Source: Candidatus Lokiarchaeum ossiferum (GTDB taxonomy: Archaea > Asgardarchaeota > Lokiarchaeia > Sigyniarchaeales > Promethearchaeaceae). From it: a stretch of 32,000 bases of DNA. The notes below the pieces were generated by a model that made no database searches, had not been told where the DNA came from, and saw only the letters and a program-made list of their open reading frames with translations. Location of the stretch: contig CP104013.1 in NCBI GenBank assembly GCA_025839675.1, positions 5,370,001-5,402,000 of the forward strand. Direction: 5' to 3'. Below, piece by piece: positions 913 to 28,082 of this stretch (position 1 is the first letter of the stretch; each line of letters opens with the position of its first letter). The position numbers were made by a program, and so were the translations under genes.

Positions 913-2163
913 TTATTGGAATTTTAAAATTGCTTCTAATCCGGCATTGTGATCTGCTGGACAGCCAGGTATAAATAATACGTTATTGAGAATATCAGGC
1001 ACATTTTCTTTCATTAATCTATTCTTATACTCCCCATAATTTTTTTTAGTGCATTGTCCAAAAAAGATTTTTGGGATTGAATCGATTTCAATTTCATTTA
1101 TATCTCTTTTTCCAATATAGAAGTAAATTTTCGGGTATTTTTGTTGTAATTTAACCCATTTTTCCATAAGTGCAGAATTAAATGAAAATTTCCGGAAAAT
1201 CCGAGAATATGCCATCTGACATCCCGTACACCCCCAAGATGAGCATTTTGAATAAATATTTCCATATTTTATAAAATCTGCAGGTTTTTGAAACGGGGGA
1301 CTTGCAGGAATAAGGGGGAGACTTCTTTCTGATATTTTTACTTGCATCGGTGGAATATGGGGGGCTTCTTCATGGGAAATTCCCATAATTGTTAAACAAG
1401 CGTTATCAACTTCGACCATATTTTCCCCTCCGATGCATAAATTTAGTGTTCTCGTTTTTGTTTGTCCTTCAGGATGCATTGACGGCCCCGTACCTTCTAA
1501 AGCAGTAGTAGCGTCAACTAAGTTGAAATCTGGTTTGATGATTGCACCTAGCTCTGTAATACAATCGTGAAGATTTGTTTTTCCCCCATATCCTAAATGG
1601 AATTGCTTTTTATCCCTTAGTAGAAGCAGTCCTTTTTGATTTTTTAAACTAAGGGTTGCTCCAGTCATTAAATGGGACTTCATTTTTGGAACATTAATAT
1701 ATGTGTGTGTTTTAACATATTTTGGGATGGATAATGTTCCATATTTCCATTGAATATCCATAAAATCTGTGAACTCCAAGTTTTCAGAGATCACATCAAT
1801 TCCATATTTTTTTTGAAGTCGTTTAATCATGCGTTCGTATTTTGTTTCTTCCAACAATCTTTGAAAATGTTCTTGTTTGAATGAGAAATACCCTGAATTT
1901 TCTCCAATTATGAATTTTTTTCCTCCTAATTTTGATAAAGCGAGAATCAATCCTTCAACTAGCTTCGGATGAGTAATGGTGGGATTTCGAGGATCTGTCG
2001 CATCCACAATGTTTGGTTTGATGAAAATTTGGGTTTTTTTTGGTTTAAAATGTAAATCTTGTAGTAGTTTTGAAATCGATTGTTCCGTTTCTTCAATTGG
2101 TTTTTGTTTTGTTTCAACAATTGATATCATAGAAAATGGAAATTTGCAGTGAAATTTAAACAT
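913..2163 (-). CDS. DUF362-like domain protein with Cys-rich C-terminal extension
   Basis: 416-aa ORF. The N-terminal part (IFIKPNIVDATDPRNPTITHPKLVEGLILAL...FIIGENSG) resembles the DUF362 family as I recall it. C-terminal Cys motifs include CSSWGCTGC and IPGCPADHN. Start could instead be M12 (2130). Confidence 0.55.
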   Translation of the reverse strand: MFKFHCKFPFSMISIVETKQKPIEETEQSISKLLQDLHFKPKKTQIFIKPNIVDATDPRNPTITHPKLVEGLILALSKLGGKKFIIGENSGYFSFKQEHFQRLLEETKYERMIKRLQKKYGIDVISENLEFTDFMDIQWKYGTLSIPKYVKTHTYINVPKMKSHLMTGATLSLKNQKGLLLLRDKKQFHLGYGGKTNLHDCITELGAIIKPDFNLVDATTALEGTGPSMHPEGQTKTRTLNLCIGGENMVEVDNACLTIMGISHEEAPHIPPMQVKISERSLPLIPASPPFQKPADFIKYGNIYSKCSSWGCTGCQMAYSRIFRKFSFNSALMEKWVKLQQKYPKIYFYIGKRDINEIEIDSIPKIFFGQCTKKNYGEYKNRLMKENVPDILNNVLFIPGCPADHNAGLEAILKFQ

Positions 2164-8650: not shown

Positions 8651-9097
8651 ATGGTGCAAAACGAATTAAAATCAGAGATTGAAGTCTTGTGGGATAATGA
8701 TCATAATTGTGCCCAATCTACCGCTAAAGGTATTCTCAATTATTATAAATTTGAAAAAGAAGGTCAAATTCTTTCCAATTCCTTTCTTCCTTATGGAGGT
8801 GGATTCAAAGAAGGTTCTATTTGTGGAGCTATTTCCGGAACTCTGGCTGCTATGAGTTTCATTCTTTCGAATTCAAATGTTGAAAATGATAAAATTGTAG
8901 AATTAACAAATCAGATGAAATCTGAATTTTTAGAAGAGTTTCCTTCAGTTAATTGTCATACAATATTAGATCCATTTCGGAAACCTGATGGTGAAATTGA
9001 TAAGGATAATGCGGAACGAAGAAATCTTTGTACGAAAGCAGTTACCAATGCCGCGAATCTTGCTCATCAAATTATATCTAATTATCTAAATACGTAA
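8651..9097 (+). CDS. C_GCAxxG_C_C family putative redox-active protein
   Basis: Ordered Cys pattern typical of that family: NCAQS...GSICGAISG...VNCH...NLCTKAV. Confidence 0.6.
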   Translation: MVQNELKSEIEVLWDNDHNCAQSTAKGILNYYKFEKEGQILSNSFLPYGGGFKEGSICGAISGTLAAMSFILSNSNVENDKIVELTNQMKSEFLEEFPSVNCHTILDPFRKPDGEIDKDNAERRNLCTKAVTNAANLAHQIISNYLNT

Positions 9098-10085: not shown

Positions 10086-10169
10086 AAAACATTCACATGG
10101 AAGCTATTTCTTAATGATTTAAAAAATAAATTATTGGAACATATTAATCGCCTAGTATTTCAAAAAAGC

Positions 10170-10535
10170 TTATTGTTTTGAATAATTATTTCCAGAAAAT
10201 TTTTCGATTGGGTATTTTTGGCGATTTTTAATCATCTTACGGTACACTTCCTCAGAAAAACTCTTTAATTGCAGAGTATTAGCTAAACTCATTAAATACA
10301 CAAAAATATCTGCCATCTCATCAGTTACCTTCTCAATATCTGCTGGGAGGTGTGAATCTGGTTGAAAAAGGAAATTTTCTAACAATTCGGCTGATTCAAT
10401 TGAGATTGCTTCAGATAGAGATTTTGGGGTATGATATTGTTCCCAGTTTCTTTCGTGGACAAACTCTGAAACTAATTCCCTTAATTCTGCGATAGTCGTT
10501 TCGTCTGTCCTTTTTAAACTGTCTTCTTCTGCCAT
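10170..10535 (-). CDS. MazG-like nucleotide pyrophosphohydrolase (dCTPase-like small all-alpha NTP-PPase)
   Basis: LRELVSEFVHERNWEQYHTPKSLSEAISIESAELLE...EMADIFVYL, which is an EExxE...ExxD-type MazG signature. The start lies 5 nt after the upstream hydrolase stop. Confidence 0.75.
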   Translation of the reverse strand: MAEEDSLKRTDETTIAELRELVSEFVHERNWEQYHTPKSLSEAISIESAELLENFLFQPDSHLPADIEKVTDEMADIFVYLMSLANTLQLKSFSEEVYRKMIKNRQKYPIEKFSGNNYSKQ

Positions 10536-15787: not shown

Positions 15788-16432
15788 ATGAATAAAAGTA
15801 CAAATTTAGAACTAATTGAATTGAAGGGTCCTTCTTTCCTACAAAAATTCTTCGAAAAAATATCTCTTCGATCCCTATGGATTATCTCTGGTTTTGGATT
15901 TCTTTCAACCATAATTATTTATCTAATTATGGCTCCTATTGAGTTGGAATTGAAAGAAATATCACCATTTGGTGTTATGGAACTTGAATTTATGTGGACT
16001 CGTTCGCAAGCTCAGGTTATTATTGATGCTTGGGGATTGGAATACATTCAAAAGGAACTTTTTGTCACTTATCTTGATTTTGTTTTTATGCCTGCCTATG
16101 CAATTTTATTTAGCAGTTTTTCTCTTGCCATTTCCAAAAAAATAGTCCATAATAAAACTAACTTGAAAAAATCTCCAATTGTGAAATTTTTCTCCAGGAA
16201 CGGTTTAGTTATTGGATTATTTCCTTGGATCGCTGTAATATTTGATATCATTGAAAATCTAAATATTATTTATATTTTAACAAATCCTGAAATGTTTAGA
16301 AATTTTGCTCCTTTTCTAACATCTGTTTGTGCATCCATCAAGTTTTCGTTTTTACTATTGTCTATTCTATTTTCTTTGGTTGAAATTCTGGTATTTTTAT
16401 TTATGAAAAATAAAAGGATGAAAGAAATTTAG
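15788..16432 (+). CDS. hypothetical multi-pass membrane protein
   Basis: About 214 aa with several long hydrophobic segments. First ATG is at 15788 (the track start 15773 is GTG). Confidence 0.5.
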   Translation: MNKSTNLELIELKGPSFLQKFFEKISLRSLWIISGFGFLSTIIIYLIMAPIELELKEISPFGVMELEFMWTRSQAQVIIDAWGLEYIQKELFVTYLDFVFMPAYAILFSSFSLAISKKIVHNKTNLKKSPIVKFFSRNGLVIGLFPWIAVIFDIIENLNIIYILTNPEMFRNFAPFLTSVCASIKFSFLLLSILFSLVEILVFLFMKNKRMKEI

Positions 16433-16626
16433 AGGATTTGATATTCCTAAACATGGTTGATTTTCGACCATAGACTACAAAAATTTAATCTTATTGACTT
16501 ATTTAAGGAAATGTCTTCAATTTTTTCGATTGGACTTAATATTTATCATATTTTTAGTAAAATGCGTTTTCAATAATATAGCGGTTATATTTTTAAATTC
16601 TGCGACACTATCTTAATGTAATATAT

Positions 16627-16788
16627 ATGTGCTCTCCAAAGGATGAAATCCATTTTGATTATGCTCAAATTTTAGAAGAAGCTTATATGCATTATTCAAA
16701 AGACTTAATTACACAGGATCAGCTTGCTCGTATTGAGAAAAAGTGTGAAGATATTATACAAAAGAGCAATTCGTCTTTAGAGTGTTAA
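16627..16788 (+). CDS. possible small ORF (53 aa), hypothetical
   Basis: ATG 16627 to TAA 16786-16788 (MCSPKDEIHFDYAQILEEAYMHYSKDLITQDQLARIEKKCEDIIQKSNSSLEC). It sits in an otherwise empty 370-bp gap, below the ORF-track length cutoff, and has no homology evidence. Confidence 0.2.
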   Translation: MCSPKDEIHFDYAQILEEAYMHYSKDLITQDQLARIEKKCEDIIQKSNSSLEC

Positions 16789-16802
16789 GATACAATAAAA
16801 TA

Positions 16803-17120
16803 CTAAAAAAATTTCCTGATATTATCTATTATTTGAAAGATTTCCGGATTTCTGATTGAATACATATTTTTTTTTCCTTCTTGGCGATATTGCAAAATTT
16901 TTCCATCTACTAAACTTTTCAAATGTTTTGAAATCGCAGCTTGAGTATAAGAAAAATGGGGTAATAAGTCACAGACACATAATTCTCCCTCGTGGAGGAG
17001 TAGAATCAATTCTATTCGAATAGGGGAAGATAGTGTTTTGCAAAATTCCGCTAATACCTTGATTTGTGGTCGAGGTAAAATATTCATCTCTAATTTGTGA
17101 GGATTTTTACATGCTGTCAT
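16803..17120 (-). CDS. arsR: ArsR/SmtB-family metal(loid)-responsive transcriptional repressor
   Basis: 105 aa with a winged-HTH layout and HEGELCVCDL, the ELCVCDL metalloid-binding motif of classical ArsR. It is the last gene of the minus-strand operon. Confidence 0.85.
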   Translation of the reverse strand: MTACKNPHKLEMNILPRPQIKVLAEFCKTLSSPIRIELILLLHEGELCVCDLLPHFSYTQAAISKHLKSLVDGKILQYRQEGKKNMYSIRNPEIFQIIDNIRKFF

Positions 17121-17135
17121 TGTTTATCATCTATT

Positions 17136-17558
17136 TTATAAACTTAAGGGATTTAACTCTTTTCCAGCACATTCTGCAATATGAAGTGCCAATTTTTCAC
17201 TTAGGGAATGATTTTTCCATTTTAAATCATGTAATGGCCCATTTTTTACTTGCTGCCATTCTGTCTCAGTGTAAAATTCTGATAATTCAATTTCCTTAAT
17301 TGGTTCCCGTCCTAAATTATTAACTGATCGGGCAGCGCATTTTTTCTGACAACCGTCAACAGTAATGCATGGGAATTTTTTCACAAAATTTTGTTCCTTC
17401 TCATCCCCAGCTAAAAATAAAGGAACACAGATTGTCGTTGTACTCCCCGGAATATACTCTGAAAGTACCTTTATTGTGGCAATACGCGAAACTGTGCCGC
17501 CTGGACATTCTTCTCCACTACAAGATAGAATTCCAATATATTTTGGTTGAATAATCAT
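17136..17558 (-). CDS. DGC-domain putative metal-binding protein (paralog 1)
   Basis: ILSCSG...TICVPL...CITVDGCQKKCA. It shares the CSG...(D/N)GCxKKC pattern with the two upstream genes. GGAGGA lies 6 nt upstream, and an ATGA overlap joins it to the upstream gene. Confidence 0.6.
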   Translation of the reverse strand: MIIQPKYIGILSCSGEECPGGTVSRIATIKVLSEYIPGSTTTICVPLFLAGDEKEQNFVKKFPCITVDGCQKKCAARSVNNLGREPIKEIELSEFYTETEWQQVKNGPLHDLKWKNHSLSEKLALHIAECAGKELNPLSL

Positions 17559-17995
17559 CGTGATTCCTCCATAAAATTGTCTATATCTGTACCGATATCC
17601 CTAGCTGTCCGTTTTGCTAATTCTAAAGCTTGCTCTCCAGGATCTAATATGCTTTTTCCTAGTTTAAGATCCCTATTTTTTACCAGAAATTTTGGCATCA
17701 AATACTTTTTTGCTACCAATCCTCCATTCTTTTCAACATTCAAGGTGGCACATTTTTTTGGACATCCATCAATCGTAAAAATAGGATGTTCTTGGATTGT
17801 GATTTTAGATTCATCATCAGCAACAACTAGTCGTGCTAAACATAACAATCGAGTATCATGTGGCTTTAAGTTTTGAGTTACTTCATAAGCAGTCCAGCGA
17901 GTAACGGTTCCCAATGCCTTTCCAATTCCGCTGCAAGGCAAAATTAAGACTTTTTTATCCTTTGATTCTTCTAATTTTTCATTATTTAATTTCAT
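17555..17995 (-). CDS. DGC-domain putative metal-binding protein (paralog 2)
   Basis: LILPCSG...LLCLARL...IFTIDGCPKKCA. ATG at 17995 has AAGGAGA 9 nt upstream (the track start 18001 is TTG). The stop is TGA at 17555-17557. Confidence 0.6.
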   Translation of the reverse strand: MKLNNEKLEESKDKKVLILPCSGIGKALGTVTRWTAYEVTQNLKPHDTRLLCLARLVVADDESKITIQEHPIFTIDGCPKKCATLNVEKNGGLVAKKYLMPKFLVKNRDLKLGKSILDPGEQALELAKRTARDIGTDIDNFMEESR

Positions 17996-18905
17996 CTTCA
18001 ATTTTCTCCTTCATGTGTGCAAAATAGTCAAGGGGGGTCATTAAATCTTCTAATTCTGTATCGAATGTGGATGGTTCTATCACACAAATCCATCCATTAG
18101 TATATGGTTCTCTATTAATTATATCTGGTTCTTCAATCAAAGCCTTATTTACTTGAACCACATTTCCAGTAAAAGGAGAGAGTAGATCAATTACTGTTTT
18201 TGTTGATTCGATTGAAGCTAAAGATTCCAATTGCTCCGCTTTTGAGCCGATTTCAGGTAAATCAATTATCACAATATCACTCATATTTTGTTGTAAATAA
18301 TCCGAGATTCCAACTACTGCCTTTCCATCTTGCATATAGACCCAAGCATCATTCCAAGTGAAATATAGCCCTGATTTATTATTGGGGACTTTGAACTCAA
18401 ATTTTGCTTGAAGATATTTTTGCCATTGCTCGTAATTGGGTAAGAATTGGAATTTCTCATCAAAAATATCTTTTTTTGGTGATACTTGCGGATACAATTT
18501 CAAATAAATTTCTTTTGCGGTTTCAGTGGCAATATTTAGTTCATCACCTGTTAAACTTGTTTTACCTTTTGGGGAGAATCCTTTTCCCTTTATTGATTGA
18601 GGTATATTGAAAACAAAATCTGGTCTCAATTCTTTAGTTTCACATAATTTTGAAACACATTTTTTTCCGCATCCATTTAGAACACATATCGATTTGTTTT
18701 TTAAAAGATCTTGGACATTTTCTTCTTCTACAGAGATTTGAGCAAATGATGGTTCAATTACTATATTTTTTGAATGTTCTCTACCCATTTGCACTAATTC
18801 CAGTGCAATTGATGTGCTTAATTGACCTGTTAATCTCTCTATTCCGCTACATGGTATGATTAGTATGTTTTCTTGATTATGGGTTATATTTAATTCGTTT
18901 TGCAT
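17982..18905 (-). CDS. fusion protein: N-terminal DGC-like domain plus C-terminal glycine-cleavage-H-like lipoyl-carrier domain
   Basis: N-terminal motifs are LIIPCSG...CVLNGCGKKCVSKLC. The C-terminal part is collinear with GcvH (VVGISDYLQQNMSDIVIIDLPEIGSKAEQLESLASIESTKTVIDLLSPFTGNVVQVN...EPYTNGWICVIE). The lipoyl-Lys position is retained (K236, 18198-18200). Confidence 0.75.
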   Translation of the reverse strand: MQNELNITHNQENILIIPCSGIERLTGQLSTSIALELVQMGREHSKNIVIEPSFAQISVEEENVQDLLKNKSICVLNGCGKKCVSKLCETKELRPDFVFNIPQSIKGKGFSPKGKTSLTGDELNIATETAKEIYLKLYPQVSPKKDIFDEKFQFLPNYEQWQKYLQAKFEFKVPNNKSGLYFTWNDAWVYMQDGKAVVGISDYLQQNMSDIVIIDLPEIGSKAEQLESLASIESTKTVIDLLSPFTGNVVQVNKALIEEPDIINREPYTNGWICVIEPSTFDTELEDLMTPLDYFAHMKEKIEDEIK

Positions 18906-18919
18906 ATATATTCACCAAA

Positions 18920-19240
18920 TTATTTCGAGAGTGTTTTTTTTTTAATTTCTGCTTTAATGGATTTAATTTGTTTCAAAACTTCCTTTTTCGGTTGAAAAAT
19001 CATAGCTCCTTCGATAGGACACATTTTTAAGCATGCCTGGCAGAAAACCACACAATTTTTTGGTTTAACTACCACAATCTTTCCATCCTTTTTCTCATAT
19101 ACTCCATGAGCGCAAAAAGTTACACAATCTCCGCAATTATTGCATTTTTCATAATCAATTATGGGAAACCAATCTATTTGACCTCTTGGTACTCCCATGA
19201 ACTTGTGAGGGTTTTTCATATTACGACTTGCTTCACTCAT
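18920..19240 (-). CDS. 2x[4Fe-4S] ferredoxin-like protein
   Basis: CNNCGDCVTFC and CVVFCQACLKMCP cluster motifs. ATG at 19240 overlaps the upstream gene's TGA by 8 nt (the track start 19243 is TTG). Confidence 0.8.
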   Translation of the reverse strand: MSEASRNMKNPHKFMGVPRGQIDWFPIIDYEKCNNCGDCVTFCAHGVYEKKDGKIVVVKPKNCVVFCQACLKMCPIEGAMIFQPKKEVLKQIKSIKAEIKKKTLSK

Positions 19241-19622
19241 CAATTATACCCCATTCTTCCAATTGTTTTTCTATTTCATCGAAAGCTTCATCAGTAGTCA
19301 TGTTACGAACATCTAGAGGTTTGGCCATTTTGCTAAAATCAAGATTATGTTTTTTAAAAGCAGGTGACATCAGTTTCATCTGCATATTTGGTGAACAACC
19401 TGCTATAAAATAGTGCATATCTGGATCTATTGAATTAGTTTTCAATAAATCATCCAAAAAGCGATCTCCATCAATTTCACATAGTTGTGGATGTACTATT
19501 GCCCATTCTACAGGAAGGGCTAATCGAACTTGATTTATTAAATCCCATACGTTCATGGTTGCGAACCCCGGACAATCGCCGGTACAAACGCAGAGAATGA
19601 ATCCTACTCGTGGTTTTGCCAT
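19233..19622 (-). CDS. stand-alone Cys-rich domain protein resembling the internal VCxCG...ACSP...N(I/V)R domain of heterodisulfide reductase HdrA
   Basis: GFILCVCTGDCPG...PQLCEIDG...YFIAGCSPNMQMKLMSPAFKKHNLDF...LDVRN is collinear with my recollection of the HdrA segment IGVFxCHCGxNI...CS...VVVAxCxPRxHExxF...GLN...NIR. ATG is at 19622 (a GTG at 19631 is also possible). First gene of the operon. Confidence 0.5.
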   Translation of the reverse strand: MAKPRVGFILCVCTGDCPGFATMNVWDLINQVRLALPVEWAIVHPQLCEIDGDRFLDDLLKTNSIDPDMHYFIAGCSPNMQMKLMSPAFKKHNLDFSKMAKPLDVRNMTTDEAFDEIEKQLEEWGIIDE

Positions 19623-19653
19623 TGTTTTCACTTCTACTTAGTAAAAAAATTGG

Positions 19654-19746
19654 AAATAATATAACCAAAATGTTATCATAACCATTTGGTTATCATTACT
19701 TTTTAGTTATGTATTCTTCCTTAAAAACATTTTTATCATCATAACC
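19654..19746. promoter_or_regulatory. divergent promoter/operator region with a 33-bp near-perfect palindrome and a repeated half-site
   Basis: 19661-19693 reads ATAACCAAAatGTTAT-C-ATAACcaTTTGGTTAT, with 14 of 16 arm positions complementary and the centre at 19677. A related TTATCATCATAACC sits at 19733-19746. The minus-strand TATA-like TATATTATTT (19654-19663) overlaps the left arm. The plus-strand TATA-like GTATAAAA is at 19773-19780. Confidence 0.4.
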
Positions 19747-19815
19747 TAATTTCAAATTTCTCTTCTTATTCGGTATAAAACAAATATATTTAGGATTTTA
19801 GTTCTATTGGTCATT

Positions 19816-20031
19816 ATGGGTAATATTTCCTATGAAAGTACGATCATTTGTCCCCAATGTGGAAATTCTGAAACCCATATTCTAACTGAAAACGCATGAA
19901 ATTTGGCGATCTCCTGTGACAATTGTAAAACAATCATCCGTGGAAAACCAAATAAACATGGGTGAACTTGAGTTTTTTGTAGTTATGGTAGTTCTCCATG
20001 AGTAGGGATTCAGAAACAAACAAATAAGTAA
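19816..20031 (+). CDS. small Cys/Sec-rich metal-binding protein with four predicted selenocysteine (UGA) codons; GDCCVxC-type
   Basis: ATG 19816 to TAA 20029-20031 gives 71 residues: MGNISYESTIICPQCGNSETHILTENA-U-NLAISCDNCKTIIRGKPNKHG-U-T-U-VFCSYGSSP-U-VGIQKQTNK. In-frame TGAs are at 19897, 19963, 19969 and 19999, and there is no TAA/TAG. The TGAs fall where the remembered family consensus has Cys. A SECIS-like hairpin follows. The ORF track misses this gene. Confidence 0.6.
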
Positions 20032-20044
20032 TGCATCGCAAAAA

Positions 20045-20089
20045 ATGCAATGAAAACTACTGGTAAACCTTTGGCAGTAGTTGGAGCAT
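20045..20089 (+). promoter_or_regulatory. SECIS-like k-turn hairpin in the 3' UTR of the UGA-containing ORF
   Basis: AUGC (20045-48) pairs with GCAU (20086-89). A 3-nt bulge AAU follows. Tandem sheared pairs are G52.A85 and A53.G84 (5' AUGA / 3' GA). An 8-bp perfect helix joins AACUACUG (20055-62) to CAGUAGUU (20075-82). The 12-nt apical loop GUAAACCUUUGG contains AAA. Confidence 0.5.
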
Positions 20090-20126
20090 AAAGAAGTGAA
20101 AAAAATGTGAATTTTGGATTTTCTAT

Positions 20127-20924
20127 TCAAAATTTATAAATACGTGCAAATAAATCATCTTCACGTGGAAAAAGCATGGCATCTTTTGCTATTTCTTCAT
20201 TCGTAAAGTCAACTGGGGCGTTTTCTATCATCACAAAGGGTGTTTGTTCATCACATTCTCCCATTACAAGGTGGGCGGCATCGGTAAGTTGATCTGCTAA
20301 AGCACGTTGTGTCCATTCCATTTCATGGCCGTATAAATCACATTTACCAATACAATCCATAACTGGATTGAAACCATCAACTCCGATAGCAACTCCCACG
20401 ATCCCCTTTCTAAGTGGCTGTACTCGAGAATCGGATATAATAGTGCCAAAATTTGTGAGATGATATATTTCTTTAATTTTCTGAGAGATTTGTCTTGCTG
20501 TTTCAAAAGGTTCTGTTGGCCAAGGTGAATAATGGTCGCCCGGTCCAGAGTTTGACTTGTCAATTCCTCCATTGGCAATTAAAACTCCATTCTTTTCGGT
20601 AAATAGCATCTTTGGGATTCCTCCAATGATTTGGTCCGATTCATCCAAGATAATTTGAACAAAACGTGGATCCATAGTATATTCCTTAGCTAGATTTTTT
20701 GCCTTCTCACTTATCTCAGTTATCTGATTAAGATCTATTATTTTTCCTTGAGATGTGGCTACAAGTGTCTCAGCAATGACTAAAACCGAATTCTCTTGAG
20801 GAAATAAATTATTCGATTTGAATGTTTCTTGAAGAACCTTGATTAAATCTTCATTCTTTTGAATAATATGGGTTGTTTTTAATGCTGTTATTTTCATTAG
20901 TTTCTTTCTCCAATTTTTTTTCAT
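20127..20924 (-). CDS. cofE: CofE-like gamma-glutamyl ligase (coenzyme F420-0:L-glutamate ligase family)
   Basis: VLVIAETLVATSQGK, GVLIANGGIDKSN and ISDSRVQPLRKG resemble CofE. The ATG at 20924 overlaps the upstream TGA (ATGA). An alternative start is M10 (20897). Confidence 0.75.
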   Translation of the reverse strand: MKKNWRKKLMKITALKTTHIIQKNEDLIKVLQETFKSNNLFPQENSVLVIAETLVATSQGKIIDLNQITEISEKAKNLAKEYTMDPRFVQIILDESDQIIGGIPKMLFTEKNGVLIANGGIDKSNSGPGDHYSPWPTEPFETARQISQKIKEIYHLTNFGTIISDSRVQPLRKGIVGVAIGVDGFNPVMDCIGKCDLYGHEMEWTQRALADQLTDAAHLVMGECDEQTPFVMIENAPVDFTNEEIAKDAMLFPREDDLFARIYKF

Positions 20925-22213
20925 TTGATTAAAAGATAATTAGTGCTGTAAATTTCCTTAATTTGCTCTTCTTTGTGCAAAGAGGCTTCTATCATTTTTC
21001 CCAACTTATCTAATTCTAAATCTTGCCCTCGCAATTTCTTAACCAGTTGTTCCATTTGAAGCAAAGTTCCAATTAAAACGGCAGTAAATTTTTCATCGTA
21101 TTTTTTATTTTCCGTAGTGACCACTTCGCGATGTAATGCAACGTCTCCTCCCCGAGCGAGTAATTCTTGCTTCAGAATTAATCCTTGGGGTGCTGTGATA
21201 TTTTTCAAGATAATATTTTTCGAGATCATTTTTCCTGACATTATTTTAGCCCCAGGTAGGGAAACTCCTAGTTCGGATAAATGAATTTCTGTGGCATATT
21301 TATCCCGAATTAGTTCTTCTATCTCACAAATTTGGTTATTATTTTGAATTTGAATTGGTTTTCGTCTAATTGCGGAAGCCACTTTAATCGTGTGTTGCAT
21401 TTTTTCATCTACATCATGGGTTCGAATGATATGTGCTCCATTATAGATTGCAATGGATGTGGCTGCCAAACTTCCTATATCTCGCTTGGATGCATCCTTT
21501 TCCTCCAATATTGATCCAATGAATGATTTTCTTGATAATCCGACAAGAATGGGGACTTGAAATGCTCTAAAGTCATGTAAATGATCTAACATCGCCAGAT
21601 CATATTCATAGGTTTTTTCTGCGACCCATTTTCCAATTCCTGGATCAACCATGACCTTTTGAGTATCATAATTCCGCTTCTTCAATTCCAAAATACTCTG
21701 ATGTAAAGCTTTAAGAATCTCTTGAGGGGTTTTTGCATCTCCCGGTTTTTTAAAAGTCGCCATCAAACAAACTGGGCAGTTGTATGATACCACTAAATCC
21801 AGCATCTTTGGATCCGTTTGGAAGGAAGAAATATCATTTAAAATCACTCGATATCCATGCTTTTTTCCAAACTCTAAACTCCACCGAGCAACTTTTGAAT
21901 ATTGTGTGTCAATGGAAAGAATTATGTCCTTTGGAACCAGTTCTGGGATCATTGTTAAAGTTTTTTGCATTCGGTCCAATTCTTCATCCAAAGAAATGGG
22001 ATCAGACCATGGAGCTGTTGAACGTGCTCCAAAATCGAGAATGGTTGCTCCATATTTGATAAATTTTTCAATTGTAATCTGTAAACTTTCATTGGGAATG
22101 AAAGAACCTTGATAGAAGCTTTCGGGACTCAAATTGACAATTCCCATAATTCGAACGGGGGAAAAATCACCAATTGAATACCCTTCAAATAATTCTTGAT
22201 GGATAGAACCCAT
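20921..22213 (-). CDS. folP: dihydropteroate synthase-like pterin-binding enzyme with an approximately 150-aa C-terminal extension
   Basis: IMGIVNLSPESFY, ILDFGARSTAP, LSIDT, ILNDIS, MVDPGIG, ILVGLSRKSFIG and GAHIIRTHDV are DHPS TIM-barrel motifs. Residues from about 285 to 430 are unassigned. Confidence 0.8.
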   Translation of the reverse strand: MGSIHQELFEGYSIGDFSPVRIMGIVNLSPESFYQGSFIPNESLQITIEKFIKYGATILDFGARSTAPWSDPISLDEELDRMQKTLTMIPELVPKDIILSIDTQYSKVARWSLEFGKKHGYRVILNDISSFQTDPKMLDLVVSYNCPVCLMATFKKPGDAKTPQEILKALHQSILELKKRNYDTQKVMVDPGIGKWVAEKTYEYDLAMLDHLHDFRAFQVPILVGLSRKSFIGSILEEKDASKRDIGSLAATSIAIYNGAHIIRTHDVDEKMQHTIKVASAIRRKPIQIQNNNQICEIEELIRDKYATEIHLSELGVSLPGAKIMSGKMISKNIILKNITAPQGLILKQELLARGGDVALHREVVTTENKKYDEKFTAVLIGTLLQMEQLVKKLRGQDLELDKLGKMIEASLHKEEQIKEIYSTNYLLIK

Positions 22214-23323: not shown

Positions 23324-25435
<2,112 letters not shown>

Positions 25436-25496
25436 TTTTTTTCAAATGAATAAAATTTCATAAATTAATTTCAATATATTTTAAAGGTAAATATTT

Positions 25497-28082
25497 ATGT
25501 CCCAATCACCAGATCCAGATAAAAATAATCCCGAAATTCCTGAAGATGACGATATAACAGATGCATCATTTATTATCGATAAAGAAATCAAAGATGAATT
25601 GAGTAAATCCTATATTGATTATGCTATGTCCGTGATTGTAGGAAGAGCGATTCCAGATGTTCGCGATGGAATGAAACCGGTTCAGCGTCGTATTTTATAT
25701 ACGTGCGAACAAAATAATTTTCTCTATAATCGACCAACTCGCAAGTGTGCTCGTATTGTTGGAGATTGCATGGGTAAATATCATCCCCATGGTGATCAAT
25801 CTGTATATGCTGCATTAGTTCGATTGGCACAGCCGTTTTCTGTCCGATATATGTTAGTGGATGGACAAGGGAACTTTGGTTCTGTTGATGGGGATTCTGC
25901 TGCAGCAATGCGTTATACGGAAGCACGGTTAGCAAAGATTAGCAATGATATGTTAGCTGATATTGATAAAAACACAGTTGATTTTGTCGATAACTTTGAT
26001 GGTTCTTTGAAAGAACCGGCTTATTTACCCGCAAAATTGCCAATGATTTTACTCAATGGTGCTTCTGGTATTGCGGTCGGAATGGCTACGAACATTGCAC
26101 CTCATAATTTGAGGGAAGTTTCAGATGCGATTGTTGCCTCTATAGAAATGGGACCATCAAATTTCACACCTACTGATGCGGCTAAATACATTCGAGGGCC
26201 GGATTTTCCAACTGGTGGTATCATGATGGGTCAACAAGGTGCTTTTGATGCTATTACAACTGGAAGGGGGGCTATTGTTGTTCGAGGTAAAGCTGAAATC
26301 GAAATCAATGGAGCAGGAAAAAATAAGGATGCTATTATTATAACCGAAATTCCTTATATGGTCAATAAAGCAAGGTTGATTGAAAATATCGCTGATCATG
26401 TTAATAAAAATGTTATTCCTGAAATTTCTGACATAAGAGATGAATCTGATCGAAACGGAATGCGTATTGTTATTGAACTTAAAAAAAATAGCGACGCAAA
26501 TGCATGTTTGAATCGGTTGTATTTAAAAACTCAACTTCAAAATTCATTCAATATTATCAATTTAATGCTTGTAAATAATGGATTGCAACCACAAGTTCTC
26601 AATTATGCCGAAATAATTAAGGAATTCATTGATCATCGTGAAAAGGTTATTCAACGACGAACTGAATTTGAATTAGCCAAAGCGAAAAATCGACTGCATA
26701 TTATTGAAGGTTTACTAATTGCTATAAATAATATTGATGAAATTGTACAATTAATTAAAAAAAGTGCAAATCCTGCTGAAGCAGCAGAACAAATGATGGA
26801 AAAATTTGGTTTAACCGAAATTCAAGCAGCAGAAATTTTGAAAATGCCCTTAAGTCGGTTAACAAATCTTCAAACTCAGAAACTTGTGGATGAGGAAACT
26901 GACCTGAAAGTGAAAATTGCTGAGTTTGAAACCATTCTTGGAGATTATAATGTTCGTTTGCAGATTGTAAAAGATGAAACCATTGAAATGGCCGCAATGT
27001 ATGGAGATGAACGACGGACAGAAATTCAAGAAACTTTTGAAGCGTTAAAAATTAATTACAAGGAAACCGTACCTGAAGAAGATTGTGTCATCATGATTAC
27101 TCGCAATCAAACTATCAAGCGGATGACCTTGGAAAATTATCAAGCTCAAGGGCGTGGTGGTAAAGGTAAACGAGGAATGAATATGCGGGAAGAAGATATT
27201 GTTCAAGAAATGTTCATTGCTTCCAGTCATGATACCATTTTACTCTTTACACAGCAAGGTCGAGTTTATTCTATTCCTGCATTTACAATACCTTTAGCTT
27301 CCCGTAATGCACAGGGAAAAGCTTTAGTTAATTATGTTAATTTAAAATCCGCCGAAAAAATCATTGATATTACTAATGTAAGTGATTTTGAAGGTAATCG
27401 AAGTCTTGTGTTTGTTTCCTCAAAAGGAATGATTAAAAAAGTGAAGCTCAGTGCTTTTGCAAAAATCCGAAAAACTGGGATTCATTGTATGAACGTTAAA
27501 GATAATGATCAATTAGTTAAGGTCAAACTCTGTGAGCCGGGCAAAGAAGTATTTGTTGCTACAAAAACAGGGCATGCAATTCATTTTAAGGAAGATGAAT
27601 TACGCTTAATTGGACGTACTGCTATGGGTGTTAAAGGGGTGACTCTTCGGTCCGAAGTAGATGAAGTTGTGGATTTGGTTGTTGCAGATCCAACCACCAA
27701 TATTGTAACTCTGAGTAAATTGGGTTATGGCAAAAATAGTGAATTGAGCCTTTATCGATTGACCCATCGGGGTGGGAAAGGTGTAATTAATATCAAACTT
27801 CGTGAAGGAGATGAAGTAATTGCCAGTAAATCAGTCCCCGAAGAGAAAAATTTACTATTAGTCAGTGTGAAAGGTATTATTATACGGGTTCGTACTGAAG
27901 ATATTCGAGAGACGGGACGCGCTGCAAAAGGTGTTATTGTAATGCGATTGGGTGAAGACGATGCGGTTAGTTCTGTCGCATTATGTGATGCAATGGATGA
28001 ATCTATTCCCGATGAATCAGCAATTGAACCTGATGATCCTGAAATAGTTCCTGATGATCCTAATAATAATCTTAAAGATTAA
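25497..28082 (+). CDS. gyrA: DNA gyrase subunit A
   Basis: DGMKPVQRRILY, HPHGD and the active-site Tyr context AAMRYTEARL. The C-terminal part has beta-pinwheel repeats, including a GyrA-box-like QGRGGKGKRG. Both termini carry acidic extensions. Confidence 0.95.
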   Translation: MSQSPDPDKNNPEIPEDDDITDASFIIDKEIKDELSKSYIDYAMSVIVGRAIPDVRDGMKPVQRRILYTCEQNNFLYNRPTRKCARIVGDCMGKYHPHGDQSVYAALVRLAQPFSVRYMLVDGQGNFGSVDGDSAAAMRYTEARLAKISNDMLADIDKNTVDFVDNFDGSLKEPAYLPAKLPMILLNGASGIAVGMATNIAPHNLREVSDAIVASIEMGPSNFTPTDAAKYIRGPDFPTGGIMMGQQGAFDAITTGRGAIVVRGKAEIEINGAGKNKDAIIITEIPYMVNKARLIENIADHVNKNVIPEISDIRDESDRNGMRIVIELKKNSDANACLNRLYLKTQLQNSFNIINLMLVNNGLQPQVLNYAEIIKEFIDHREKVIQRRTEFELAKAKNRLHIIEGLLIAINNIDEIVQLIKKSANPAEAAEQMMEKFGLTEIQAAEILKMPLSRLTNLQTQKLVDEETDLKVKIAEFETILGDYNVRLQIVKDETIEMAAMYGDERRTEIQETFEALKINYKETVPEEDCVIMITRNQTIKRMTLENYQAQGRGGKGKRGMNMREEDIVQEMFIASSHDTILLFTQQGRVYSIPAFTIPLASRNAQGKALVNYVNLKSAEKIIDITNVSDFEGNRSLVFVSSKGMIKKVKLSAFAKIRKTGIHCMNVKDNDQLVKVKLCEPGKEVFVATKTGHAIHFKEDELRLIGRTAMGVKGVTLRSEVDEVVDLVVADPTTNIVTLSKLGYGKNSELSLYRLTHRGGKGVINIKLREGDEVIASKSVPEEKNLLLVSVKGIIIRVRTEDIRETGRAAKGVIVMRLGEDDAVSSVALCDAMDESIPDESAIEPDDPEIVPDDPNNNLKD

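Follow-up and report, generated by a model that had tools for sequence, protein, structure and literature searches.

Several described systems resemble parts of the locus examined here. In the ars operons of anaerobes, ArsR is found with ACR3, ArsD/A, ArsC, ArsP, ArsE, thioredoxin (Trx) and CcdA, and one such operon, ArsR-ArsP-ArsE-DGC (ArsR5) of Pseudodesulfovibrio mercurii ND132, includes a DGC protein of unknown function (bioRxiv 10.1101/2022.10.17.512643). The sHdr-LbpA systems combine a GcvH-like lipoyl carrier and a dedicated lipoate ligase with Hdr-derived Fe-S modules; in HdrABC and in ferredoxin:thioredoxin reductase (FTR), an Fe-S wire leads to a Cys-rich module and from there to a disulfide. 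A lipoyl lysine is also carried by the H-protein of the glycine cleavage system, and a mycobacterial relay running from dihydrolipoyl dehydrogenase (Lpd) through the lipoyl protein SucB and AhpD to AhpC was reportedly described by Bryk et al. in 2002. Here we report on a six-gene operon of Candidatus Lokiarchaeum ossiferum, located in a 32,000-nucleotide (nt) stretch of DNA (the window), which encodes an ArsR/SmtB repressor, two stand-alone DGC proteins, a DGC-GcvH fusion, a 2x[4Fe-4S] ferredoxin and a small protein resembling the N-terminal Fe-S domain of HdrA (the HdrA-N-like protein). This cassette is not peculiar to L. ossiferum; it is widespread in anaerobic archaea and bacteria, and by context it belongs with the ars resistance islands and other ArsR-controlled metalloid resistance modules.

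With the ars operons of anaerobes the cassette has in common an ArsR of the CxC type and the DGC protein already on record, and half of the related loci lie beside or inside such operons. It differs from them in that the window has no pump or reductase and in that a five-gene core (HdrA-N-like protein, ferredoxin, DGC-GcvH and two DGC proteins) matches no named ars function. The likeness to sHdr-LbpA, which the original prediction for this window had pointed out while observing that the partners differ, is one of analogy: a GcvH-like carrier again occurs with Hdr-derived Fe-S modules and, in some cassette loci, with the lipoate-protein ligase LplA, but only the N-terminal Fe-S domain of HdrA is present, and the flavin domain, the HdrB/C proteins with their CCG domains, a DsrE/TusA core and LipS1/S2 are all missing. 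The regulator and neighbours of the cassette also point to arsenic and not to sulfur oxidation, a rhodanese-TusA protein being seen once (locus L001). HdrABC and FTR share with the cassette a logic in which an HdrA-domain protein and an HdrC-like ferredoxin would wire electrons to a Cys-rich module, here perhaps an Fe-S-binding DGC, and on to a disulfide, but DGC is unrelated in sequence to both the CCG domains of HdrB and the FTR catalytic subunit. The glycine cleavage H-protein agrees with the cassette carrier in its fold, its lipoyl-lysine motif and about 35% of its residues; the cassette version, however, is fused to DGC and lies in an ArsR operon with no T- or P-proteins nearby. The mycobacterial relay likewise serves defence by passing electrons from NADH through Lpd and a protein-bound lipoyl group to a small thiol protein, and AhpD-like proteins occasionally join the cassette, whose carrier is a DGC-fused H-protein and not an E2, and which has no peroxiredoxin, has additional Fe-S proteins and occurs in a metalloid context. 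As defining features of each of sHdr-LbpA, Hdr and glycine cleavage were tested for and not found, the operon is none of these systems. The original prediction had found no described system to match, and the full-text literature searched contained no description of the cassette beyond PF08859 in the ArsR-ArsP-ArsE-DGC operon; most subscription-journal papers lie outside that literature, so an earlier description is possible.

Gene neighbourhoods were compared over the GTDB species, each represented by a single genome, with the HdrA-N-like protein, in a close alignment, as the anchor. The scan gave 348 loci, from which the best 80 by anchor similarity (37 archaeal and 43 bacterial) were fetched; open reading frames (ORFs) within 5 kb of the anchor were obtained by our own crude ORF calling, clustered by BLASTP and labelled with Pfam and NCBIfam. 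On this count, 80 or more anaerobic archaeal and bacterial species have the cassette, and up to 348 by the unchecked scan, in the recurrent order HdrA-N-like, ferredoxin, DGC-GcvH, DGC, DGC. Of the 80 loci, 77 contained DGC genes (about three per locus), 75 a GcvH domain, nearly always fused to DGC, 65 a ferredoxin after the HdrA-N-like gene and 62 an ArsR, counts that may be biased because the loci were chosen by similarity to the anchor, which is 48-72% identical to the window protein over the set and 52-57% identical to it in the bacterial loci. About half of the loci are archaeal (Loki-, Thor-, Heimdall-, Frey- and Jordarchaeia, and Bathyarchaeia). Bacterial carriers include several Acetobacterium species, Eubacterium callanderi, E. 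limosum and E. aggregans, Clostridium ragsdalei, Paraclostridium, Sedimentibacter and Lacrimispora, together with Negativicutes, Synergistia, Desulfotomaculaceae, Actinomycetota, Armatimonadota, Acidobacteriota and Bacteroidales. The neighbourhood check proposed with the original prediction thereby returned conserved synteny in both domains of life. Because the same order is met again, at 38-91% protein identity, in contigs and genomes that are unrelated, the genes are associated more than chance would allow.

Variations on this arrangement were also seen. Promethearchaeota contigs with the fusion encode a 128-amino acid (aa) protein, a Fer4 protein, DGC-GcvH and two DGC proteins, with or without ArsR, and further contexts came from HdrA-N-like homologs at 57-91% identity; in some relatives ArsR lies upstream of the cassette, not downstream. 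A word-indexed search had returned nine fusions, all from Promethearchaeota, and a rare or Asgard-specific fusion was considered on that ground; this was wrong, as 81 of 91 loci, bacterial ones included, carry it. The Bathyarchaeia-like contigs of one archaeal lineage (L005-L008 and L033; e.g. L005 8001-9325) hold a minimal unit of HdrA-N-like protein, ferredoxin and ArsR without DGC or GcvH, and the Fe-S pair with ArsR may be the ancestral core. Behind these minimal units comes a Cys-rich ORF of 49 aa whose CxxC...CC pattern is desulforedoxin-like. In a neighbour-joining tree of HdrA-N-like proteins, archaea and bacteria were mostly apart, with a few bacterial sequences nested on the archaeal side, a pattern suggestive of occasional inter-domain exchange or of mis-binned contigs (L032, L057). 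Both of these contigs, assigned to a Nanopelagicaceae bacterium (L032) and to Deferrimicrobium (L057), carry Asgard-type cassettes, as would be expected from mis-binning or very recent inter-domain transfer, and a distance of only 0.07 sets the L057 anchor apart from its near-identical match in a Freyarchaeota genome.

An indication of function came from the genes beside these cassettes. At least one structural ars gene (ACR3, ArsA/D, ArsC, ArsP or ArsE) lay within 5 kb in 40 of the 80 loci, 15 archaeal and 25 bacterial. By a rough, uncomputed argument this rate is far above chance, because 10 kb holds about ten of the few thousand genes of a genome, and a genome has only a handful of ars genes. 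ACR3 was present in 20 loci, ArsC in 12 and ArsA in nine. Against a cutoff of 283 bits, the ACR3 of three bacterial loci reached 445-472 bits and that of L032 291 bits; ArsA scored 855 bits, and ArsD and an ArsE-type thioredoxin-like protein were above their cutoffs; ArsC-like proteins, with LMW-PTP arsenate reductases as their best match, and ArsP-like permeases remained below the curated cutoffs. In L050 (Synergistia) and L051 (Bacillota), the cassette genes are placed between ArsR-ACR3 and ArsC/ArsP/ArsE on one strand, with junctions mostly under 75 nt apart from two gaps of about 360-420 nt in L051, and in L010 and L011 an ACR3-like and a TehA-family transporter adjoin the cassette. The original prediction, of a dedicated redox relay for soft metals and metalloids or for sulfur and selenium, is supported by these results, and arsenic is favoured among the metals and metalloids that it listed, because ars operons contain or adjoin the cassette in half of the 80 loci. 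We give an about even chance to the reading that the cassette belongs functionally to arsenic (As/Sb) resistance, where it would probably act as a relay built on a protein-bound dithiol.

Further genes were seen near the archaeal cassettes. In 22 of the 37 archaeal loci (e.g. L015, L016, L020, L021 and L036) a divergent unit encodes ArsR, a 97-aa thioredoxin-like protein (SCxC, no Pfam family) and a fourth DGC protein; this Asgard pairing of a Trx-like protein with DGC mirrors the bacterial pairing of ArsE with DGC. Asgard loci also have a DUF166 (DfsP-like) gene after the cassette in 11 cases, and a gene for an unknown 95-aa protein in 12.

The repressor of the operon matches PF01022 (HTH_5, 5.9e-11) and NF033788 (8.3e-22; 76.8 bits against a cutoff of 55). 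The metalloid-sensing motif ELCVCDL named in the original prediction is present as GELCVCDLL, an alpha-3 CxC site, and CxC was found in 83 of the 87 ArsR proteins that adjoin related cassettes. An N-terminal Cys, Cys4, is also present, but is not conserved in L004.

For the lipoyl carrier, the fusion protein could be divided into a DGC domain (residues ~13-105) and a GcvH-like domain (~172-300) with the lipoyl lysine at K236. The GcvH part matches PF01597 at 3.6e-32 and NF002270 at 117.7 bits (cutoff 117), and Foldseek aligned it to the bovine H-protein (3klr) with a TM-score of 0.94 and 36% identity. Its lipoyl site, ESTK236, aligns with ESVK of Thermotoga maritima GcvH, and among 79 non-redundant fusions K236 and E233 are each conserved in 98%. 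Genes for lipoyl metabolism accompany many bacterial cassettes: Lpd (TIGR01350, 512 bits against a cutoff of 409) was found in 20 bacterial loci, at least 10 of which have it immediately before the HdrA-N-like gene, and LplA in 14 loci, with compact eight-gene units (ArsR-Lpd-HdrAN-Fd-DGC/GcvH-DGC-DGC-LplA) in Paraclostridium and Lacrimispora. Because bacterial cassettes bring their own Lpd and lipoate ligase, the lipoyl arm can be placed at the centre of the system. The near-canonical GcvH domain, the L-protein (Lpd) and LplA beside it in bacteria, and the many acetogens among the carriers would also suit an arsenic-proof spare H-protein, a GcvH isoform induced by stress that would serve glycine cleavage or glycine synthase, while its fused DGC domain and the partner DGC proteins would free its lipoyl arm of As(III) or shield the arm, so that C1 metabolism is kept running in acetogens and Asgard archaea. 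We regard this as unlikely: neither GcvT nor GcvP occurs in the window or among the recurrent neighbours, the most conserved parts of the cassette (ferredoxin and HdrA-N-like protein) would have no role, and the minimal HdrAN-Fd-ArsR units described above exist without GcvH.

The three DGC domains match PF08859 at 1.9e-15 for the stand-alone protein termed P2, 2.4e-12 for that termed P1 and 1.9e-10 for the fusion (57.2, 47.3 and 41.2 bits, gathering cutoff 27), and no second Pfam family was found in 121 DGC proteins. P2 has the motif CSGE..GGT.SR...C.PLF.AG..E..F...P.I.VDGC...CA. and P1 the motif PCSGIGK..G...R...CL....DGCP.KC., so that the four-Cys pattern CSG ... C ... DGC x3 C is present in both stand-alone proteins, by alignment for P2 and in the consensus for P1; C13, C44, C70 and C74 are invariant in the P2 homologs (n = 121). 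A Cys motif shared by all three proteins had been part of the original prediction. Its cysteines proved to be conserved among homologs, but the fused domain has three conserved Cys and not four: in the 79 fusions, C79 and C83 are invariant and C19 is Cys in all 75 that cover the column, whereas the position of the "second" DGC cysteine is V, S, A, G or P in every one. P1 is encoded directly 3' of the fusion gene in 66 of 81 loci and P2 is at its position after the fusion gene in 55 of 81, and fusion, P1 and P2 each keep a consensus of their own in both domains of life. Judged by their sequences, the three DGC genes are not interchangeable copies.

An AlphaFold2 model of P2 (pLDDT 90.8) has a flavodoxin-like alpha/beta fold in which the four Cys follow strands beta-1, beta-2 and beta-3, a topology that implies a single clustered site. 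Cys after beta-1 and beta-3 of an alpha/beta fold are likewise found in the HdrA N-terminal/MvhD-like domain. Homology between this domain and DGC was considered and rejected, since profile-profile comparison with hhalign gave a probability of 0.6% and Foldseek returned no HdrA match. Selenocysteine (Sec) in place of Cys, as a mark of redox-active residues in cassette carriers, was also pursued; a TGA read-through scan of 91 loci ruled it out, as none of the conserved Cys of the cassette proteins was replaced and U was met only at true stops. By analogy, a three-Cys site beside a dithiol arm would fit both an S3-type site for As(III) and a site-differentiated Fe-S cluster that acts on a disulfide in the manner of FTR or HdrB. 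The As(III) sites of ArsR, ArsD and ArsA have three sulfur ligands.

Four invariant Cys at the C-terminal ends of neighbouring strands could instead make DGC proteins Zn(Cys)4-type binders, in a cassette that would buffer or chaperone Zn, Cd, Hg or Pb as other soft metals. The database names of DGC proteins ("putative zinc-binding protein", "uncharacterized metal-binding protein") agree with this, as does the inclusion of Cd/Pb/Zn sensors in the alpha-3 CxC ArsR/SmtB family; in addition, the top NCBIfam match of the ferredoxin is HgcB, far below cutoff. Such a buffer is nonetheless very unlikely, since it needs no lipoyl carrier, Lpd, LplA or Fe-S carriers, since the fused DGC is always without one of the four ligands, and since the recurrent neighbours are ACR3, ArsA/D and ArsC and do not include MerA/T/P, CadA, CzcD or ZntA-type genes.

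No part of the cassette is better conserved than the HdrA-N-like protein, encoded by the first gene of the operon. Pfam and NCBIfam gave no match for it, and its PDB matches are confined to the N-terminal Fe-S domain of HdrA (7bkb_A, residues 5-92, E = 3.5e-4); a profile of the family found 9sfi_A, 7bkb_A and 5odc_A at 1.7e-6 (9sfi_A) to 3.5e-4, covering HdrA residues ~4-104. Within the family C14, C16, C51 and C79 are invariant and C20 is nearly so, four of the Cys align with those of HdrA, and the protein is likely a [4Fe-4S] protein. At 129-132 aa it contains neither the thioredoxin-reductase-like FAD domain nor the inserted ferredoxin domains of the ~650-aa HdrA chain, and HdrB/HdrC partners (CCG domains) were absent from the window and from the annotated recurrent neighbour families. 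An exhaustive HMMER search of 1.84 billion representatives returned only 87 clusters (50% identity) of this protein, almost all of 50-180 aa and many of them fragments, and no plasmid copies were found in PLSDB. Bacterial and Asgard copies are 52-60% identical, which suggests strong constraint. In one Promethearchaeota contig (L015 12026-14086, plus strand), an apparent full-length HdrA gene has an in-frame TGA in the motif C-Q-U-G, at the position of C16 in the stand-alone family; that family never has Sec there.

The adjoining ferredoxin matches the dicluster families Fer4_9, Fer4_10 and Fer4_7 at ~1e-7 and carries the motifs CNNCGDCVTFC and CVVFCQACLKMCP. It also weakly resembles HgcB and the HdrA2 ferredoxin domain.

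Under the arsenic reading, the following scheme can be drawn. Trivalent arsenicals bind with high affinity to vicinal dithiols such as dihydrolipoamide. ArsR, through its CVC thiolate site, would repress the operon, probably at a pair of palindromes upstream of it, and would release it on binding a trivalent metalloid. The GcvH-like domain would carry lipoate on K236, as the conservation of that lysine suggests, attached by LplA where related loci encode it. Going by gene content and adjacency, the lipoyl disulfide may be reduced to the dihydrolipoyl form with electrons from low-potential ferredoxin, delivered through the 2x[4Fe-4S] ferredoxin and the HdrA-N-like [4Fe-4S] protein; in many bacteria NADH could be an alternative source, by way of the cassette-encoded Lpd. 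More speculatively, the reduced arm, the three-Cys fused DGC domain and the two four-Cys DGC proteins might work jointly, either capturing trivalent arsenicals, which would spare essential lipoyl enzymes and feed efflux, or passing reducing equivalents to arsenic-handling steps.

Several observations count against an arsenic function. The other half of the related loci are without an ars gene in the 5 kb examined. The window itself, in a scan of every ORF of at least 90 aa except those inside a longer ORF, holds no arsB/acr3, arsC, arsA/D or arsM, hence no efflux pump or arsenate reductase, and no GcvT/P/L, in keeping with the original prediction, which had reported the absence of classical arsenic genes and of glycine cleavage P, T and L genes. 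The third Cys of the R773-type S3 site (ELCVCDLC) is Leu in this ArsR (CVCDLL), and repressors with an alpha-3 CxC also sense Cd, Pb, Zn or Bi. In bacteria Lpd could already reduce the lipoyl arm, which leaves the role of the Fe-S proteins unexplained. Neither sequence comparison nor Foldseek against the PDB turned up a solved structure like that of DGC (best E 0.02, TM ~0.4, generic flavodoxin-like), whose site might hold Zn, Fe-S or, with redox-active thiols, no cofactor at all. Finally, neighbours from selenoprotein families (GDCCVxC, CC/Se, MbdU-like, DfsP-like and SclA-like desulfurase) would suit a selenium or general soft-element role.

The first of these neighbours lies in the window. 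The Sec-rich gene that the original prediction had placed divergent to the operon is a real ORF, which matches the GDCCVxC family NF041374 with 59 bits (cutoff 40) when each U is scored as C; its TGA codons occur at ENA-U, HG-U-T-U-VFC and SP-U. The 3' untranslated region (20050-20086) can form an 8-bp hairpin (20055-20082) flanked by AUGA/GGAG, a candidate Sec insertion sequence (SECIS); the fold of the 111-nt stretch containing it has a z-score of -2.5, no Rfam family matched there, and Rfam families in 16000-21000 gave only two matches, both at chance level. In a Bacteroidales genome (L077), the gene for an all-Cys GDCCVxC homolog (10121-10327) comes soon after the cassette. A core partnership of this selenoprotein with the cassette was rejected, since the gene stands beside it in only two of 91 loci, those of this window and L077; it is an occasional accessory.

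Other genes of this kind are found elsewhere. Eleven bacterial loci, in Acetobacterium, Eubacterium and Clostridium (e.g. L070 4256-6551, L053, L058 and L066), have three genes facing the cassette: one for a divergent ArsR, one for a PF04060 protein ("putative Fe-S cluster") and one for a selenocysteine-lyase-like cysteine desulfurase (TIGR01977). This set hints at dedicated sulfur or selenium mobilisation or at Fe-S repair. CC/Se-motif (seleno)protein genes (NF041239-like) follow the last DGC gene in L009, L010 and L013. A stop codon, possibly one for Sec, interrupts the second copy in L009.

Together with MbdU-like and DfsP-like proteins, a rhodanese-TusA-rhodanese protein in L001, a putative TauE/SafE-like membrane protein in four loci (a sequence-based label with no NCBIfam match) and a TehA/TDT transporter in L010, these genes would suit a trafficking and redox system for sulfur or selenium. 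As a distant functional cousin of sHdr-LbpA, it would hold persulfide, polysulfide or selenide on the lipoyl arm or DGC thiols, under an ArsR-family repressor that senses thiol modification. Such neighbours are each limited to a few lineages, however, whereas ars genes recur in both domains. The ArsR scores far below the cutoff for BigR-type sulfur sensors (39 against 155 bits), no Cys-to-Sec exchange occurs at the conserved cassette Cys of the 91 loci, and sHdrB/C, DsrE and LipS genes are absent. This explanation appears improbable to us.

Thioredoxins with CcdA are other recurrent neighbours, and in close Loki relatives an AhpD/CMD-family CxxC gene lies between ferredoxin and fusion (e.g. 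L009; this gene and the CC/Se-motif genes lie at L009 3973-4323 and 6063-6724 and L010 10546-11144). AhpD/CMD proteins were found in or beside the cassette in L009/L013, L051, L074 and L077, and mycobacterial AhpD is known to receive electrons from Lpd and a lipoyl carrier, so a relay of that type against thiol-peroxide or disulfide stress was weighed, in which the ars linkage would reflect only the thiol and oxidative stress that arsenite causes. Set against this are the lack of a peroxiredoxin among the recurrent neighbours, the presence of AhpD-like genes in only about four of the 80 species loci, and a regulator that is a metal/metalloid-type ArsR with CxC and no peroxide sensor; a stress relay of this sort is quite unlikely.

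A bolder form of the arsenic reading, held only tentatively, is that the cassette represents an unrecognised class of anaerobic metalloid-processing complex, spread between the domains by gene transfer, in which the lipoyl arm delivers a dithiol or a bound arsenical into a new Cys-rich catalytic fold, that of DGC. A split Hdr-like module, made of the HdrA-N-like protein and the HdrC-like ferredoxin, would supply its power, and in bacteria Lpd would take the place of the HdrA flavin domain. Such a complex might carry out chemistry beyond the known ars genes without oxygen, for example ferredoxin- or NADH-driven reduction of pentavalent or thiolated arsenicals, or anaerobic detoxification of methylarsenite. 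We see a substantial, though less than even, chance that the chemistry is categorically new.

Dihydrolipoyl groups of lipoyl enzymes are the classical cellular targets of arsenite. A dedicated lipoyl carrier linked to resistance, for which bacteria also encode a ligase and a reductase, would thus bring a new principle to the biology of arsenic; if the arsenic reading is true, it could serve as a decoy, carrier or reductant in arsenic handling. To our knowledge, anaerobes cannot use the oxygen-dependent ArsH and ArsI, and the cassette might therefore explain how they cope with arsenicals. A function established here would give a first role to the DGC domain (PF08859) and to the stand-alone HdrA-N-like family. 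Since cultured bacteria such as Acetobacterium, Eubacterium limosum/callanderi and Clostridium ragsdalei carry the cassette, the hypothesis can be tested without growing an Asgard archaeon.

The six ORFs of the operon in L. ossiferum span 16803-19631 of the window, all on the minus strand, and correspond to NEF87_004575-004580 (proteins UYP48290.1-UYP48295.1), with ATG starts as in the deposited annotation. With these starts, the junctions given in the original prediction (from the HdrA-N-like gene onwards, an 8-nt overlap, a 14-nt gap, a 14-nt overlap, an ATGA overlap between P1 and P2, and a 15-nt gap) were reproduced exactly. Its assignments of ArsR, two DGC proteins, DGC-GcvH fusion, ferredoxin and HdrA-domain protein also agree with the searches, through Pfam or NCBIfam for five of the six and a PDB match for the sixth. 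As the genes lie at most 15 nt apart and keep their order in both archaea and bacteria, the six almost certainly form a single transcription unit, as had been claimed. A T-rich stretch overlaps the stop codon of ArsR, the final gene, and runs on past it.

Features of the operon and of the divergent region in the window (aa, amino acids; positions are those of the window).
Feature	Locus tag	Position	Strand	Remarks
HdrA-N-like protein	NEF87_004580	19233-19622	(-)	129 aa from ATG (129-132 aa); alternative GTG start 19631
2x[4Fe-4S] ferredoxin	NEF87_004579	18920-19240	(-)	106 aa from ATG
DGC-GcvH fusion	NEF87_004578	17982-18905	(-)	307 aa
DGC protein, type P1	NEF87_004577	17555-17995	(-)	146 aa from ATG; alternative TTG start 18001
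DGC protein, type P2	NEF87_004576	17136-17558	(-)	140 aa
ArsR/SmtB repressor	NEF87_004575	16803-17120	(-)	105 aa; final gene of the operon
GDCCVxC-family (seleno)protein ORF		19816-20031	(+)	71 codons, four in-frame TGA
Two adjacent 16-nt palindromes, ATAACCAAAATGTTAT and ATAACCATTTGGTTAT		19661-19693		inverted and direct repeats I1, I2, D1 and D3
Third half-site, ATCATAACC		19738-19746		divergent intergenic region

The operon and the GDCCVxC gene are separated by a divergent intergenic region of 185 nt, with AT-rich, TATA-like stretches about 25-35 nt before each of the two start codons. The palindromes lie 30-70 nt upstream of the operon start codon and, as a candidate ArsR operator, may serve both sides; the selenoprotein gene is probably co-regulated with the operon.

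Elsewhere in the window, the neighbours are purine synthesis genes, gyrase, dihydropteroate synthase and a CofE-like ligase. The gyrase is a bacterial-type gyrB-gyrA pair (23378-28082, plus strand) in this Asgard genome, with scores of 896 bits for NF004189 and 1039 bits for NF004043, both above the cutoffs. The CofE-like gamma-glutamyl ligase falls below the equivalog cutoffs and overlaps by 4 nt the gene for the 430-aa dihydropteroate synthase, which has a C-terminal extension of about 150 aa without an assigned domain; the two genes lie at 20127-22213 on the minus strand. A C_GCAxxG_C_C "putative redox-active protein" (8651-9097, plus strand) and a DUF362 protein (913-2163, minus strand), members of two further small orphan families of redox or Fe-S type, are also encoded in the window, neither of them adjacent to the operon.

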